From a virus (Duplodnaviria; Heunggongvirae; Uroviricota; Caudoviricetes), in the IMG/VR virus record IMGVR_UViG_2713896905_000006: a DNA stretch of 4,389 nt. One strand, given 5' to 3'. The translations under genes and the position numbers were made by a program. The notes beneath the pieces are model-generated. The model did not search any database. It worked only from the letters and a program-made list of their open reading frames with translations, and was not told the DNA's origin. Below are positions 308 through 4,314 of this stretch, in pieces; within the stretch, counting starts at the first letter, position 1, and every line of letters starts with the position of its first letter.

Positions 308-517
<210 letters not shown>

Positions 518-605: not shown

Positions 606-1322
<717 letters not shown>

Positions 1323-1408
1323 CACGAAATAAACGTCCGACAAGCACAGCAGCCAATACCTAAAAACAATATTTTGCCGAATATTCAGTTCGTTATAAAG
1401 GTTAAGCA

Positions 1409-1987
1409 TTGAGTATACCAACTGTCTCTCTATGGAATGAGATGGGGTTAATCCCCCCAATAGACGAGGCTGATCCTACAAGCCATACTCGTTCCCCATA
1501 CAAAATGGATATAGTACGCTTTGTTAGTACTTTTTCGCTTAGCCCTGCAAGGATTAAAATCCTTAAGGGTTTTCTTAACTTTCGTGTTTCACTCACTCAA
1601 GCAGGGCTAGTTGAAGGTTTTCAGTGGGTAGATGGAAGCTTCACAGAACATATTGAACTTATTGAAAAAAGGCCACCGAATGATGTCGATGTTGTGACCT
1701 TTTTTCAATTCAGTAATGGCGATAATGATGCAATCGTAATCGGTAGAAAGCCAGAGCTATTTGATCATGATTTTGTTAAGAAGGAGTTTTTCGTAGATTC
1801 CTACTTCCAAGAACTTAATCTACCAAGTCATGAGCTTGTTGAAATGACTGTATATTGGTACAGTATGTGGGCACATAGACGCGATCTGTCGTGGAAGGGA
1901 TTTATCCAAATCCCGTTAAACCCACAACTTGATGTTGTGGCAATGACTATACTTAATTCGGCTACTACTGAGGGGGTCAAACAATGA
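1409..1987 (+). CDS. Hypothetical protein, cargo gene 1 of 2 in the rexAB slot; possible nucleotidyltransferase-fold protein
   Basis: 192-codon ORF beginning at TTG 1409 with AAAGG (1397-1401) 7 nt upstream. Alternative in-frame ATG starts at 1442 and 1505. Contains G-S (nt 1634-1639) followed 14 residues later by D-V-D-V-V (nt 1682-1696), the pattern of minimal Pol-beta-type nucleotidyltransferases. Stop TGA overlaps the start of the next gene. No similarity to lambda RexA or RexB that I can recognise. Confidence 0.6.
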   Translation: MSIPTVSLWNEMGLIPPIDEADPTSHTRSPYKMDIVRFVSTFSLSPARIKILKGFLNFRVSLTQAGLVEGFQWVDGSFTEHIELIEKRPPNDVDVVTFFQFSNGDNDAIVIGRKPELFDHDFVKKEFFVDSYFQELNLPSHELVEMTVYWYSMWAHRRDLSWKGFIQIPLNPQLDVVAMTILNSATTEGVKQ

Positions 1988-2913
1988 ATCGTAATGATTA
2001 TGTTTTCGCTCTCAGTGAGCGCGAGCAAATAAGTAATCTATTAAAAAATATGCCAACAAGTCATTCTATTAGCCGAAAAAGCTTAGAAGACCGTCTGGAG
2101 AAAGTTGAGCGATTAATTTCACAAGCTGACGTTCGAGAACATGAACCTACGCATGCTGTGTTAACTTTTAGAGGCCCAACAGTAGTTGGCACGCATGGCA
2201 TTTCAGCAGTATTTGGAACAAAAGCTATATCTTGTTTTAATGATGCAATAGCTTACTTGGCAACCTCTTTCAATGGCCCACTTCCTGCATCAGGCAAGAT
2301 ACCAAACATAGAAAATAATCATCTCATGATTACCGCGTCAGCCCGTGGTTCTTTCGGATTCGTACTTGAAGAGTTTAGACCTGATGCTCCTCTTGAATTC
2401 GATGAAGAAACCCCAGTAGCAAAAGCTATTAATAAGGCCAGAAAAATATTTCAGGCAAGCTTGGATAATGATGATGAAGAATTGTCTGATGCTATAGAAA
2501 ACTTAGACTCTCGGGCCTTAGATAAAATCAGAGCATTCATTCATTATCTGCATGAAAATAAAACAGTTTTTACACTTAAAAGCCAAGGTTTTAGCATCGT
2601 TTTTAGAGAGCCAAAACAGCTTGAAGCTGTATATCAACATCTCAGCAATGATAACATTCAGCAGGAAAAAATTATTGAGAACGTTATATTTTTGGGAACT
2701 CTTCCTAACAAGCGCCAATGTGAATTTATAGTTTTAGGTAACACTGATATCAGAACCGCTAGCATTGACAAAGCTGTAGATGACCCAGATATTATAAACA
2801 AGCACTTAGGAAGCGTTGCAACAGCCACGTTCCTGAAAAAAACTGTTGGTAAGGGCAAGCCCAGATACACTCTGGTTTCTCGACCTCAATGGGATATTAA
2901 ATCAATCGATTAG
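1984..2913 (+). CDS. Hypothetical protein, cargo gene 2 of 2 in the rexAB slot; no recognisable domain
   Basis: 309-aa ORF, ATG at 1984 overlapping the upstream stop (caaacaATGAatcg), implying translational coupling. No transmembrane-length hydrophobic stretch. Acidic segment DNDDEELSDAIENLDSRALD. Followed immediately by an intrinsic terminator. Confidence 0.75.
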   Translation: MNRNDYVFALSEREQISNLLKNMPTSHSISRKSLEDRLEKVERLISQADVREHEPTHAVLTFRGPTVVGTHGISAVFGTKAISCFNDAIAYLATSFNGPLPASGKIPNIENNHLMITASARGSFGFVLEEFRPDAPLEFDEETPVAKAINKARKIFQASLDNDDEELSDAIENLDSRALDKIRAFIHYLHENKTVFTLKSQGFSIVFREPKQLEAVYQHLSNDNIQQEKIIENVIFLGTLPNKRQCEFIVLGNTDIRTASIDKAVDDPDIINKHLGSVATATFLKKTVGKGKPRYTLVSRPQWDIKSID

Positions 2914-2926
2914 AATGAGCCCCTTC

Positions 2927-2955
2927 AGCCCGGCCTCCGCGCCGGGTTTTCTTTT
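2927..2955 (+). terminator. Rho-independent terminator ending the cI / cargo operon
   Basis: GC-rich stem cccggc (2929-2934) / gccggg (2941-2946) with loop ctccgc, followed by ttttctttt (2947-2955). T-run is on the + strand side only. Lies 14 nt after the ORF2 stop. Confidence 0.7.
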
Positions 2956-3105
2956 ACCATCAGTCCGTCAAAAACACACCTAACGAATTGTATTTATTGA
3001 ATAAATATAAATCACACTTATCACATTGCGCAATTCAGCTCCTACACATCCAGACTAGCTCTGCAAAACTTTAAAAAAATAAATCAATAGTAAAAACATG
3101 CACAT

Positions 3106-3168
3106 AACCATTTGCGGTAATATTTTATCTCTAGCGGTGTTGACGAAAATACCTCCGGCGGTGATACT
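3106..3168 (+). promoter_or_regulatory. Left operator region OL3 (3106-3122), OL2 (3126-3142), OL1 (3150-3166) with promoter pL
   Basis: Three 17-bp sites aaccatttgcggtaata, tatctctagcggtgttg, tacctccggcggtgata, the same family as the OR sites. pL -35 ttgacg (3140-3145), 17-bp spacer, -10 gatact (3163-3168). Near-identical to lambda oL/pL as recalled. Directs + strand transcription into nutL and N. Confidence 0.85.
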
Positions 3169-3214
3169 AAACACATCAGCAGGACGCTGGAAGCTAAATG
3201 GAACAGACTGGCAG

Positions 3215-3259
3215 GCTCTTTAAACAACGTCGACTCTCGACTACGTGGCTGAAAAGCCA
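3215..3259 (+). promoter_or_regulatory. nutL-like N-utilisation site (boxA, spacer hairpin, boxB)
   Basis: GCTCTTTAA (3215-3223, boxA-like), hairpin gtcga-ctc-tcgac (3229-3241), tacg, then tggct-gaaa-agcca hairpin (3246-3259, boxB-like). Lies in the pL leader upstream of N. Parallel architecture to the nutR copy. Confidence 0.55.
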
Positions 3260-3357: not shown

Positions 3358-3630
3358 ATGTCCAGAAAAACAGAATTTAAAGGCACCGCAGCTTCTCGCC
3401 GTAGAGCTCGTCGCGCAAATCTGCAAAGTCAGGAGGCGATTAGCTCCGACAAGCTACACAGGCCAACCCCTTCACGAGTGGTCTTGCAATGCAAGCGCAA
3501 ACCAGCAATGAGAGCAGAAGTTATAACTCTGACAACGTTGACCAGAAAATATGAAGGTTCAACTTGTCTTCCGAACGTAGCTCTTTACGCGGCAGGCTAC
3601 CGGAAATCAAAACAACTGACAGCGAGGTAA
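3358..3630 (+). CDS. N: N-family transcription antiterminator (arginine-rich motif; phage 21 N / P22 gp24-like)
   Basis: 90-aa product MSRKTEFKGTAASRRRARRANLQ...ALYAAGYRKSKQLTAR. Strong ribosome-binding site gggagga 5-8 nt upstream of ATG 3358. Arginine-rich N-terminus typical of N proteins. The N-terminus resembles phage 21 N and the C-terminus resembles P22 gp24, both from memory. First gene after pL/nutL, as expected. The upstream in-frame ATG at 3286 has no ribosome-binding site and is rejected as the start. Confidence 0.8.
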   Translation: MSRKTEFKGTAASRRRARRANLQSQEAISSDKLHRPTPSRVVLQCKRKPAMRAEVITLTTLTRKYEGSTCLPNVALYAAGYRKSKQLTAR

Positions 3631-3688
3631 CCTGCACTGTTCGCCAGAAAATGAAATTAGGCAGCAAACCACTTATTTGAGGTGATAT

Positions 3689-4138
3689 ATGGAAGAACAG
3701 GCAAATAAGATTCTCATAGAACTATTGCAAAAAGCCAGTAATGGAATAGACGCGGCTGTCTCATTTAGCCAGGCACAGATTCCTGATGTTGTTCATCAGT
3801 TACTGCTATGGAATATGGTTGACAGTCTGATTAAAACATTAATAGCCATTTTAACAATCCCGCTGGTTTTCTGGTTTATGAAGAAACAGTGCCAAAAAGT
3901 TGAAATTGGTAAGTTCGATGATGAAGGATGGTCATGGGATAAGGGGAAGACTAAATACAAACCGACTATGATTTGGGAAAGTAACTGTGAGATTAGTTTT
4001 CTAATCTTACCATTAGCTGCAGTTTTTGTTCTGTGGGTAAGTTTTATTATTGCTGTAGTAACCAATATGACTTGGTTAAAAATTTGGCTGGCCCCAAAGC
4101 TTTACCTTATCGAATATGCAGCATCATTGGTTAAGTAA
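3689..4138 (+). CDS. Hypothetical small membrane protein with two predicted transmembrane helices
   Basis: 149-aa ORF with ribosome-binding site gaggtga (3679-3685) before ATG 3689. Two hydrophobic segments, LIKTLIAILTIPLVFWFM and ISFLILPLAAVFVLWVSFIIAVV. Sits in the early-left operon directly downstream of N, where lambdoid phages carry accessory and exclusion genes. Not recognised by me as a named protein. Confidence 0.65.
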   Translation: MEEQANKILIELLQKASNGIDAAVSFSQAQIPDVVHQLLLWNMVDSLIKTLIAILTIPLVFWFMKKQCQKVEIGKFDDEGWSWDKGKTKYKPTMIWESNCEISFLILPLAAVFVLWVSFIIAVVTNMTWLKIWLAPKLYLIEYAASLVK

Positions 4139-4142
4139 TTTT

Positions 4143-4168
4143 AGGCCGCATAGTCGGCCTTTATTTTT
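4143..4168 (+). terminator. Rho-independent terminator-like hairpin after the membrane protein gene
   Basis: Stem aggccg (4143-4148) / cggcct (4155-4160), loop catagt, followed by ttattttt (4161-4168). Begins 5 nt after the stop codon. Would be read through under N antitermination. Confidence 0.55.
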
Positions 4169-4287
4169 GGCATAAACAACAGAATAAACACTGCACTGTG
4201 CATTCATTCCAACGAGTGAATACACGGAGAAATGTCGCTCATAATTAAACAGGAGCCGACTTGTTCTGATTATTGGAAATCTTCTTT

Positions 4288-4314
4288 GCCCTCCGATGTG
4301 AGGGCAATTTTTTA
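4288..4314 (+). terminator. Second terminator-like hairpin upstream of the next ORF
   Basis: Stem gccctc (4288-4293) / gagggc (4300-4305), loop cgatgt, followed by aatttttta (4306-4314). Confidence 0.4.

Follow-up and report, generated by a model that had tools for sequence, protein, structure and literature searches.

The interval between cI and OL/pL of lambda-type phages has already been described as a variable defence locus, and the cargo tested in exactly this slot (RexAB and HigBAC) defends. In lambda it holds two genes, rexA and rexB, which lie in the orientation of cI, end at a terminator and are presumed to be expressed in the lysogen; RexB is a multi-pass membrane protein. HigBAC and HicABC are exchangeable cargo located directly after cI, and are three-gene modules with an RNase toxin and a SecB-like chaperone.

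Other relevant two-gene systems include a nucleotidyltransferase. In the type VII system HepT/MntA, the gene of a small Pol-beta nucleotidyltransferase lies upstream of, and overlaps, that of a larger partner, an HEPN toxin of ~130 aa, and the enzyme acts as a negative regulator of this toxic partner. AbiE (AbiEi/AbiEii) and MenAT are abortive-infection or toxin-antitoxin pairs in which the Pol-beta-fold nucleotidyltransferase is itself the toxin (DUF1814, ~250-300 aa), and its gene is the second, downstream of that of the antitoxin. In the Hailong and Clover systems, the nucleotidyltransferase (HalB or CloB) is a negative regulator that constitutively restrains, via its nucleotide product, a toxic partner, which is a transmembrane ion channel (HalA) or a dNTPase (CloA) (PMC13434031).

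We analyzed a stretch of phage DNA of 4,389 nucleotides (referred to below as the window), in which the cI-OL/pL interval holds two genes, named here A and B. An earlier note on this DNA had proposed that they form a prophage defence module, on the grounds that the slot is known for exclusion genes. The latter point is correct, and since the slot has been published as a defence locus, the idea is not new.

The rexAB interval and its replacement

The earlier description of cI, cro, OR and OL as lambda-like was confirmed by Pfam domains and by the operator sites. The cro gene (positions 308-508, minus strand; 66 aa; Pfam Cro, E 5.9e-35) marks the part of the immunity region that forms its rightward arm. 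It is followed by OR1 (535-551), an exact 17-mer identical to lambda OR1, for which 0.01 matches are expected by chance, and by OR2-like and OR3-like sites, read directly from the sequence and extending to ~598. The cI gene (609-1322, plus strand) encodes a lambda-like repressor of 237 aa with HTH_3 and Peptidase_S24 domains, and the DNA of this region is 91-92% identical to that of HK97 and mEp234 as far as position 1318. The downstream boundary of the slot is formed by the OL operators and the pL promoter (3103-3168, plus strand). A promoter scan located a pL-like promoter (TTGACG-17-GATACT) at 3140-3168, OL1 (3150-3166) has one mismatch to lambda OR1, and OL2-like and OL3-like sites could be read from the sequence within 3103-3168. 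The first pL-transcribed gene (3358-3630, plus strand) encodes the N antiterminator (90 aa; Pfam N_peptide, 3.4e-32; phrog_271).

Between these elements, the list of open reading frames and the sequence itself confirmed the presence of two overlapping genes on the same strand: gene A (1409-1987, plus strand; 192 aa, TTG start) and gene B (1984-2913, plus strand; 309 aa, ATG start), which share the ATGA at 1984-1987. The TTG start at 1409 is backed by an N-terminal 'IPxWN..PP' motif conserved in distant homologues, and is preceded by an AAAGG Shine-Dalgarno-like element (1397-1401) located 7 nt 5' of it; some database entries begin gene A at an internal ATG (1442). The spacer separating cI from gene A (1323-1408, plus strand; 86 nt) holds no terminator according to a terminator scan, and is unstructured, its RNA folding less stably than shuffled sequence (z +1.8). 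Transcription of the cassette presumably starts from the cI promoters, and the position of the genes suggests that they are expressed in the lysogen by read-through from these promoters.

Downstream of gene B, the terminator scan identified an intrinsic terminator (2927-2957, plus strand), whose position matches that of the lambda terminator after rexB. Its hairpin (2927-2948; 8 pairs, 6 of them G-C) is followed by TTTTCTTTT, and the folding energy is -15.5 kcal/mol. Blastn comparison revealed that homology to HK97 and mEp234 ends at 1318 and restarts at 2923-2931, and that the segment from 2921-2931 onward is common to mEp234, HK97 and 2B8. On this basis we assign the terminator to the phage backbone. 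The earlier picture of two genes followed by an intrinsic terminator is therefore correct as to the hairpin, which, however, does not belong to the cassette. The cassette exactly replaces rexAB (1319 to 2922), filling the whole stretch that separates the stop codon of cI from the terminator of the backbone, and its location between cI and OL/pL, in the orientation of cI, is evident from the map of open reading frames, the operators, the promoter and terminator scans and the annotation of the CE10 prophage.

In sibling phages with the same backbone, the slot holds HicA/HicB/HicC (mEp234 and HK106, whose backbones are near-identical), an NYN-domain protein, or gp49/gp48. The cassette resembles HigBAC and HicABC in being exchangeable cargo, although its two proteins are unrelated to those of the three-gene modules and its mechanism would be a different one. 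A DNA identity of 80% with a Salmonella prophage (L079) carrying an unrelated repressor defines a mobile unit at 1380-2950 (plus strand), the extent of which was derived from blastn of the window against L079 and from the gene context of L079-L082. The repressor-adjacent genes STM14_3218-3220 of Gifsy-1, which trigger RtcR, were also considered as a copy of the same cassette and were rejected because they encode proteins of other sizes (279, 102 and 220 aa).

As the earlier note had claimed, the pair is unrelated to RexA/RexB: there is no Pfam match to either model, and both products appear soluble, with no transmembrane segment above a hydropathy of 1.6 in 19-residue windows (highest Kyte-Doolittle means 1.13 for A and 1.16 for B). 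The cassette and rexAB are alike in slot, orientation, the number of genes, their ending at a terminator and the presumed expression in the lysogen, but they share no sequence or domain similarity, and A is a predicted nucleotidyltransferase. A functional analogue of RexAB, in which a sensor would open a membrane channel and depolarize the cell, is suggested by position only, that is, by the same slot and orientation. With no RexA/RexB homology, a predicted nucleotidyltransferase as the product of gene A, and no membrane protein in the pair, which largely refutes it, this explanation is scarcely conceivable, and we rejected a RexAB-like mechanism.

A predicted nucleotidyltransferase and its partner family

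The product of gene A matched Pfam DUF6932 (PF22014) with a score of 93.6 bits (cut-off 27; E 2e-26) over profile positions 3-141 of 142. All of its 36 relatives matched the same family, and no other nucleotidyltransferase Pfam family was found among them, even when weak matches were included. The sequence carries the Pol-beta motif pattern (hG[GS], DxD 9-15 residues further on, and another carboxylate on the core strand that follows), and residues G76, S77, D92, D94 and D130 are invariant across 36 A sequences with identity down to 37%. In an AF2 model (pLDDT 90.5) the motif residues are placed on canonical strands 1, 2 and 3, namely at the end of strand 70-76, at the start of strand 93-99 and within strand 129-135; the model has the core fold, and its structural neighbours are nucleotidyltransferases. 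Sequence and model thus identify A as a predicted divergent, minimal Pol-beta-type nucleotidyltransferase with an intact active site. A set of basic and aromatic residues (Y149, W150, H156, R158, W162 and K163) is invariant as well, and an RSPY motif that contains Tyr31 is conserved. The earlier view that nothing of the function can be read from the sequence does not hold for this protein, which is assigned to DUF6932 and also matches a PADLOC candidate (see below).

The partner is less easily placed. The B family comprises at least 1,468 clusters at 50% identity (E<=1e-3), to which no source gives a name, and no Pfam or NCBIfam domain was detected when 70 diverse members were scanned singly at E<=0.5. 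B is predicted to begin with a helical hairpin, followed by an alpha/beta region in the middle, a helical bundle and, at the C-terminus, a domain rich in beta structure; no fold match was obtained. Only G64, F77, G122 and S123 are invariant, the last two within a G122-S123-F-G-F hairpin of the alpha/beta region, and R37, R177 and E247 are nearly so; this is not an enzyme-like set of residues. Among 70 B relatives no HEPN family recurs, and neither an invariant Arg/His pair nor an Rx4-6H motif is present. For residues 225-297, three strands, a short helix and two strands are predicted, an order that may be compatible with an OB-like nucleic-acid-binding barrel. Searches of solved structures with A and B, by single sequence and by profile, yielded nothing meaningful, and matches to PPR-repeat and BAG-domain proteins were dismissed as repeat or low-score artefacts. 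PHROGs places both proteins in families of unknown function, and the literature search yielded no paper that names DUF6932 or the RefSeq accessions of the proteins.

Analysis of genome loci revealed how closely the two genes are linked. In 72 of 77 loci a DUF6932 gene is located directly upstream of a B homologue, as in the window, and the paired loci span Enterobacterales, Rhodobacteraceae, Planctomycetota, Acidobacteria, Cyanobium, Leptospira and Methanomicrobia; this adjacency in unrelated genomes, together with the family scores, shows that A and B are genuine genes and not chance open reading frames. In 56 of 67 loci the stop codon of A overlaps the start codon of B, and in the other loci the distance between them is <=12 nt. 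The pairwise identity matrices of the two proteins are strongly correlated (r = 0.90, Mantel p <= 0.001), and divergence is faster in B (mean pairwise identity 32.5%) than in A (41.1%). No conserved third gene was found, since the 127 Pfam families represented among 135 flanking open reading frames are heterogeneous. A and B therefore form an obligate, translationally coupled, co-inherited and horizontally mobile unit. In four loci (L010, L043, L056 and L071, three of them from metagenome bins) A is missing or disrupted and B is apparently intact.

Within Enterobacterales the pair is located directly 3' of four different prophage repressor types, which demonstrates its repeated capture in the cargo slot after prophage repressors. 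The genes that flank it elsewhere include those of integrases (5), resolvases (4), type I restriction-modification subunits, DpdF and PbeA, these tallies being family totals over loci; on a megaplasmid of P. aeruginosa, a copy has an integrase as its neighbour. The pair is distributed patchily, being present in 8 of 5,426 complete E. coli genomes.

These features bear on the possibility that the pair serves no conflict at all, and constitutes a two-subunit nucleotidyltransferase acting on small molecules, as aminoglycoside nucleotidyltransferases do, or an RNA 3'-end repair or tagging system, which would be a lysogen conversion trait. The putative OB-like barrel of B could be accommodated by such a function. 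We consider it highly improbable, since obligate coupling, patchiness and mobility across phyla are typical of conflict modules, and genes for metabolism or resistance do not recur in the neighbourhood.

PDC-M63 and a possible anti-phage role

The closest catalogued relative is the PADLOC candidate PDC-M63, likewise a two-gene system. A matched PDC-M63A (E 2.2e-10), as did all 36 of its relatives (best 1.1e-16). The B protein of the window does not match PDC-M63B at E<=1, and none of 30 close relatives does so at E<=0.1; weak matches were obtained for 8 of 70 diverse members of the B family (best 2.2e-6). Because the match is lacking in B of the window and its close relatives, the link to PDC-M63 runs mainly through A, and for the same reason PADLOC would not call the cassette. 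The cassette represents a sister lineage of this candidate. Among the PADLOC models of validated systems, none matched A or B, and the pair does not present the combination that defines CBASS, a CD-NTase (SMODS) with a Cap effector.

An instance of PDC-M63AB that also lies inside a prophage has been deleted from its native host, E. coli NILS69, and no defence activity was observed with 10 virulent phages, a panel that the authors themselves call narrow (PMC12409345). Since PADLOC calls the B protein of NILS69 but not that of the window, the NILS69 pair represents a different lineage. The proposal of a prophage defence module thus survives in part: the replacement of rexAB, the mobility of the cargo and the slot itself speak for it, whereas the sole test of PDC-M63AB was negative and validated PADLOC models gave no match. 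We regard the overall reading as partly supported, and suggest that the cassette may have an anti-phage role.

The unchanged sensitivity of the NILS69 deletion mutant (PMC12409345) could also be explained if the pair were a plain addiction or stabilization module, or selfish cargo devoid of anti-phage activity, whose loss harms the cell and which hitch-hikes in a permissive slot. In line with this, numerous copies are found in ordinary chromosomal settings without defence neighbours, and DNA and protein searches of 50,697 deposited phage genomes revealed neither A nor B. However, the tested cargo of this slot defends, and the immediate neighbours of the pair repeatedly include integrases, resolvases and restriction-modification or Dpd genes; moreover, ten virulent phages are a narrow panel, and they were applied to another lineage. 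We therefore judge the explanation improbable.

Which component may restrain the other

The reading that we prefer, with a probability of roughly 0.45, is that of a toxin-antitoxin-like module of the abortive-infection type, governed by the nucleotidyltransferase, with A restraining B and infection releasing this restraint. In broader terms, a lysogen-expressed, nucleotidyltransferase-governed toxin-antitoxin or abortive-infection module is plausible but unproven. In the lysogen, transcripts initiated at the cI promoters would run on through the cassette and end at the backbone terminator; A would be translated first, in a fixed ratio to B. A could then restrain B in one of two ways, (i) by nucleotidylylation, with the invariant Ser123 of the Gly-rich hairpin as the candidate acceptor, or (ii) by making a nucleotide product that is bound by B. 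Infection by another phage would disrupt the control exerted by A, and the component set free in this way would bring about arrest of the cell. What we infer here is that A and B interact physically, which of them controls the other, and what the trigger is; because B shows neither enzyme-like invariants nor a fold match, its role as the effector is a guess.

The architecture of HepT/MntA, with a small nucleotidyltransferase gene upstream of and overlapping that of a larger partner, is the same as that of the cassette, and control of the partner by nucleotidylylation may be a shared logic. Nevertheless, B (309 aa) is not an HEPN protein and exceeds the ~130 aa of such toxins, and A has additional conserved N- and C-terminal elements that are missing from MNTs. 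Hailong and Clover offer a further candidate logic, in the form of constitutive restraint through a nucleotide product, but B has no transmembrane segment, HD domain or other domain that would correspond to HalA or CloA. Several observations are at odds with the preferred reading: the negative deletion test in NILS69, the lack of a PDC-M63B match, of enzyme-like residues and of a fold match in B, the copies in ordinary chromosomal settings and the absence from sequenced phages. Loci that have lost A but kept an apparently intact B would likewise not be anticipated with A as an indispensable antidote, although metagenome bins account for three of these four.

The roles may instead be reversed, as in AbiE and MenAT, so that A is the toxin, acting for example by nucleotidylylation of tRNA 3' ends or of another essential target, and B is the antitoxin and phage sensor. 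A is the sole recognizable enzyme of the pair, and its invariant residues from Y149 to K163 could bind nucleic acid; B, which has no catalytic invariants or enzyme fold match, diverges faster, as sensors and antitoxins often do, and the loci that keep B and lose A follow the usual decay to an orphan antitoxin. However, these decayed loci number just four, mostly from metagenome bins. No Pfam or PADLOC match to DUF1814/AbiEii was found in A, a DUF6932 protein which, at 192 aa, is far smaller than the AbiEii/MenT toxins, and the nucleotidyltransferase-first gene order is opposite to that of AbiE and MenAT. In addition, the small-nucleotidyltransferase systems solved recently use the enzyme as a negative regulator (PMC13434031). 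Reversed roles are, in our estimation, unlikely.

Returning to restraint of B by A, a bolder form of it would make the pair a new class of bacterial and archaeal immunity, in which a DUF6932 nucleotidyltransferase modifies, or signals to, a non-enzymatic effector or sensor of novel fold, infection frees the brake, and abortive infection proceeds by a novel mechanism. We advance this version as a doubtful one.

The prophage setting makes the locus easy to test, as it offers a 1.6 kb cassette in a lambda-immunity backbone, natural isogenic comparators (rexAB and HicABC) and obvious active-site residues. Should the pair not defend, it would be a useful caution against reading a prophage slot combined with a two-gene operon as defence. 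Should it defend, it would add to the anti-phage catalogue a widespread system, ranging from enterobacterial prophages to methanogenic archaea, which current detection tools miss because B has no model, and it would provide the first function for the large DUF6932 family and for its partner family of ~300-aa proteins.

Organization of the immunity region and boundaries of the cargo

Analysis of ORFs, Pfam matches and operator sequences bore out the lambda-type anatomy proposed in the earlier note, and revealed that the immunity region lies in the orientation opposite to that of the standard lambda map. The genes cro (308-508, minus strand) and cI (609-1322, plus strand) matched the expected Pfam families. 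They are followed, on the plus strand, by gene A (1409-1987; 192 aa, TTG start), gene B (1984-2913; 309 aa), which shares with A the overlap ATGA (1984-1987), a terminator hairpin of 8 pairs with a T-run (2927-2948), a pL-like promoter (3140-3168) and N (3358-3630; Pfam N_peptide, 3e-32). OR1 (535-551) is an exact match to that of lambda and OL1 (3150-3166) contains one mismatch; with 0.01 operator matches expected by chance, these are genuine lambda operators.

Some 45-65 nt past pL, at 3213-3241, the sequence GCTCTTTAA, a short spacer and the inverted repeat GTCGACTCTCGAC together look like a nutL site (boxA plus boxB hairpin) for this type of N. In RefSeq, the corresponding region of the E. 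coli CE10 prophage (L001, 13876-14308) is annotated with two overlapping "hypothetical proteins", which leaves N unannotated. A sigma-70-like site (TTGACA-17-GATATT, 10/12 match) is present within gene B at 2765-2793 (plus strand), pointing downstream; it and the pR-like site at 561-533 are jointly the best matches in the window. An internal promoter, pLIT, occurs in the equivalent rex region of lambda. Overall, however, promoter-like sites are no more numerous than chance predicts (9 found, 9.8 expected).

In local blastn comparisons, homology to phages that share the backbone (mEp234, HK97 and 2B8) ran to position 1318, four bases short of the cI stop, and returned at 2921-2931, at the base of the hairpin of the terminator. 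The foreign segment therefore spans approximately 1319-2922, and the terminator, which is present after the cassette as the earlier note had it, belongs to the phage backbone and not to the cargo. Window positions 1380-2950 recur, at 80% DNA identity, in a prophage of Salmonella whose 155-aa repressor is unrelated; this defines a mobile unit beginning about 30 nt 5′ of gene A, a lead too short for a shared promoter. The spacer between cI and gene A folds worse than shuffled sequence and a site scan found no terminator in it, so that read-through from the cI promoters would, judging from position, be the simplest route to expression of the cassette. There is a precedent in the cI-rexA-rexB arrangement of lambda. 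Mitomycin C does not induce an unrelated set of repressor-adjacent genes of Gifsy-1, while it raises the lytic genes on either side by more than 32-fold; this fits repressor-operon-type expression of cargo in such slots.

Other occupants of the cI-to-N interval are HicA/HicB/HicC in mEp234 (L090, 1986-3116), an NYN-domain protein in 2B8 (L091, 1724-2581) and gp49/gp48 in HK97 (L092, 2047-2951); the last two are likewise uncharacterized. Just past N, a 149-aa ORF (3689-4138, plus strand) with strongly hydrophobic segments belongs to phrog_3054, of unknown function, has no Pfam or PADLOC match, and lies near terminator-like sites at 4143-4160 and 4286-4307. Homology to the CE10 prophage, otherwise 99% identical, ends at 3681, and an Nmad5-family gene takes the place of this ORF, which indicates that the post-N position is a second variable cargo slot. 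The 149-aa product is possibly a membrane exclusion protein.

Co-inheritance and distribution of the two genes

Scanning one genome per species identified relatives of B at 77 loci, ranging from Citrobacter, Providencia, Rhodobacteraceae, Sphingomonas and Burkholderiales to Planctomycetota, Acidobacteria, Cyanobium, Leptospira and three methanogenic archaea. In 72 of them a DUF6932 gene, the family of A, lies directly upstream on the same strand; four of the remaining five are cut by contig ends, and the fifth has an Mrr-like ORF upstream. Of 67 complete pairs, 56 have a gene A whose stop overlaps the start of B, and in the others the two are separated by at most 12 nt. Pairwise identity matrices of A and B are strongly correlated (r = 0.90, Mantel p ≤ 0.001), B being the faster to diverge (mean identity 32.5% versus 41.1%). 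No conserved third gene was found: the 135 immediately flanking ORFs contain 127 different Pfam families.

The locus lacking a DUF6932 gene (L010, 4650-6777, a Planctomycetota bin) carries a 371-aa ORF resembling Mrr-type restriction proteins, adjoining a 1,105-aa SNF2-like helicase; this ORF may be an alternative partner of B, or B may lie nested within a different defence locus. Frameshifted or N-terminally truncated A genes accompany an apparently intact B at L043 (5382-5980), L056 (4360-4671) and L071 (1167-1755). Among the 72 paired loci, gene B is split at L058 alone, and A is truncated there as well. Such loci could indicate which partner is dispensable or toxic, or could be assembly errors.

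In Enterobacterales the pair follows a prophage repressor in four different immunity types: (i) lambda-like cI (the window and E. coli CE10), (ii) a 155-aa CI-type repressor (Salmonella), (iii) a 245-aa S24 repressor (Pectobacterium), or (iv) an S24 repressor plus a DUF3024 gene (Proteus), the latter encoding 111 aa and, in the P. mirabilis prophages (L087-L089, 7614-7949), lying between the repressor and the DUF6932 gene. The Burkholderia copy lies in a prophage-like region and that of a P. aeruginosa megaplasmid adjoins an integrase, while the Bremerella copy and one on a JGI metagenome contig have ordinary chromosomal surroundings. Phage integrases (5) and resolvases (4) are the top families among immediate neighbors, whose PADLOC matches include type I restriction-modification subunits, DpdF, PbeA and mad2. 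B relatives were found on five plasmids. The cassette of the window is rare in E. coli, being present in 8 of 5,426 complete genomes (all ≥99% identical), and the 50,697 deposited phage genomes contain no gene for either protein.

Predicted properties of the two products

Both products appear soluble from sequence, in agreement with the earlier note. A matched Pfam DUF6932 (93.6 bits, cut-off 27) and no NCBIfam model. Among 36 aligned relatives, with identities as low as 37%, its invariant residues include G76-S77, D92, D94 and D130, a set that forms the hG[GS]...DxD...D signature of Pol-beta-type nucleotidyltransferases. In the confident AF2 model (pLDDT 90.5) the motif residues lie at the end of strand 1, at the start of strand 2 and on core strand 3, and the top Foldseek match is the minimal nucleotidyltransferase 2rff. 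Signature, model geometry and fold neighbors together point to a divergent minimal nucleotidyltransferase with a predicted intact active site.

The alignment revealed additional conserved parts, an N-terminal IPxWN..PP...RSPY arm and a YWYSMWxHRR..WKG helix and loop. Residues 1-31 (1409-1501), outside the nucleotidyltransferase core, contain the nearly invariant P16, P17, R28, P30 and Y31. HalB of the Hailong system reportedly has a self-priming tyrosine, of which the conserved tyrosine on this flexible arm is, purely as speculation, reminiscent.

B matched no Pfam, NCBIfam or PADLOC model and, by sequence, no solved structure; the sole family to which it was assigned is a PHROG without known function. 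The family of B is nevertheless large: when 1.84 billion representative proteins were searched with a profile, 1,468 clusters matched at E ≤ 1e-3, and 609 did so at 1e-30. Most of the 150 top-scoring matches are 295-330 aa long. None of the 120 relatives listed, of 404 matches in a second search, has a Pfam domain or meaningful name, and 70 diverse members scanned singly share no recurring Pfam family. The confident AF2 model (pLDDT 86.6) comprises a helical hairpin at the N terminus, an alpha/beta region with the invariant G122-S123-F-G-F on its beta-hairpin, a three-helix bundle and a C-terminal beta-rich domain. Among the 70 members only G64, F77, G122 and S123 are invariant, with R37, R177 and E247 nearly so, which suggests no obvious catalytic constellation.

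All 36 A relatives matched PDC-M63A of the PADLOC candidate system PDC-M63, while PDC-M63B was matched neither by the window's B nor by 30 close relatives, and only weakly by 8 of 70 diverse ones. This makes the cassette a sister lineage of PDC-M63, one that a PADLOC run would miss. PDC-M63AB, which in E. coli NILS69 also sits within a prophage, was tested once, by deleting it in that strain, and showed no defence against 10 virulent phages, a panel the authors call narrow (PMC12409345).

Possible roles of the pair

The pair is tightly coupled and co-inherited, is mobile across domains, occurs patchily and has repeatedly been captured in an exclusion-gene slot, all of which is typical of toxin-antitoxin and abortive-infection modules. 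That it has a conflict function of some kind is likely (probability about 0.7). We consider a pure addiction role quite improbable, and a function outside conflict very improbable.

When a two-gene system contains a small nucleotidyltransferase, the enzyme usually serves to restrain a toxic partner. HepT is AMPylated by MntA, and the gene order is the same as here, with the nucleotidyltransferase first and the partner overlapping. HalB of Hailong and CloB of Clover synthesize nucleotides that act as inhibitors, and cells suffer toxicity when either enzyme is inactivated (PMC13434031). These precedents lead us to favor, tentatively and at just under even odds, a model in which A restrains B: A would nucleotidylylate B, or B would be held by a nucleotide ligand, with the invariant Ser123 hairpin as candidate acceptor or binding site. 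The opposite assignment, in which A would be the toxin and B the antitoxin or sensor, is unlikely yet a serious rival; it is favored by the missing enzyme-like signature and faster evolution of B, and by four loci that kept B while A was lost or broken.

The observation of a two-gene cassette in the rexAB slot was thus confirmed, while its interpretation as a lysogen-expressed anti-phage module is supported in part only. The slot itself is already known as a site of exclusion and defence genes. The cargo is a real, widespread, uncharacterized two-gene module with one clear enzymatic handle, and the cassette represents not a demonstrated defence system but a good experimental candidate.
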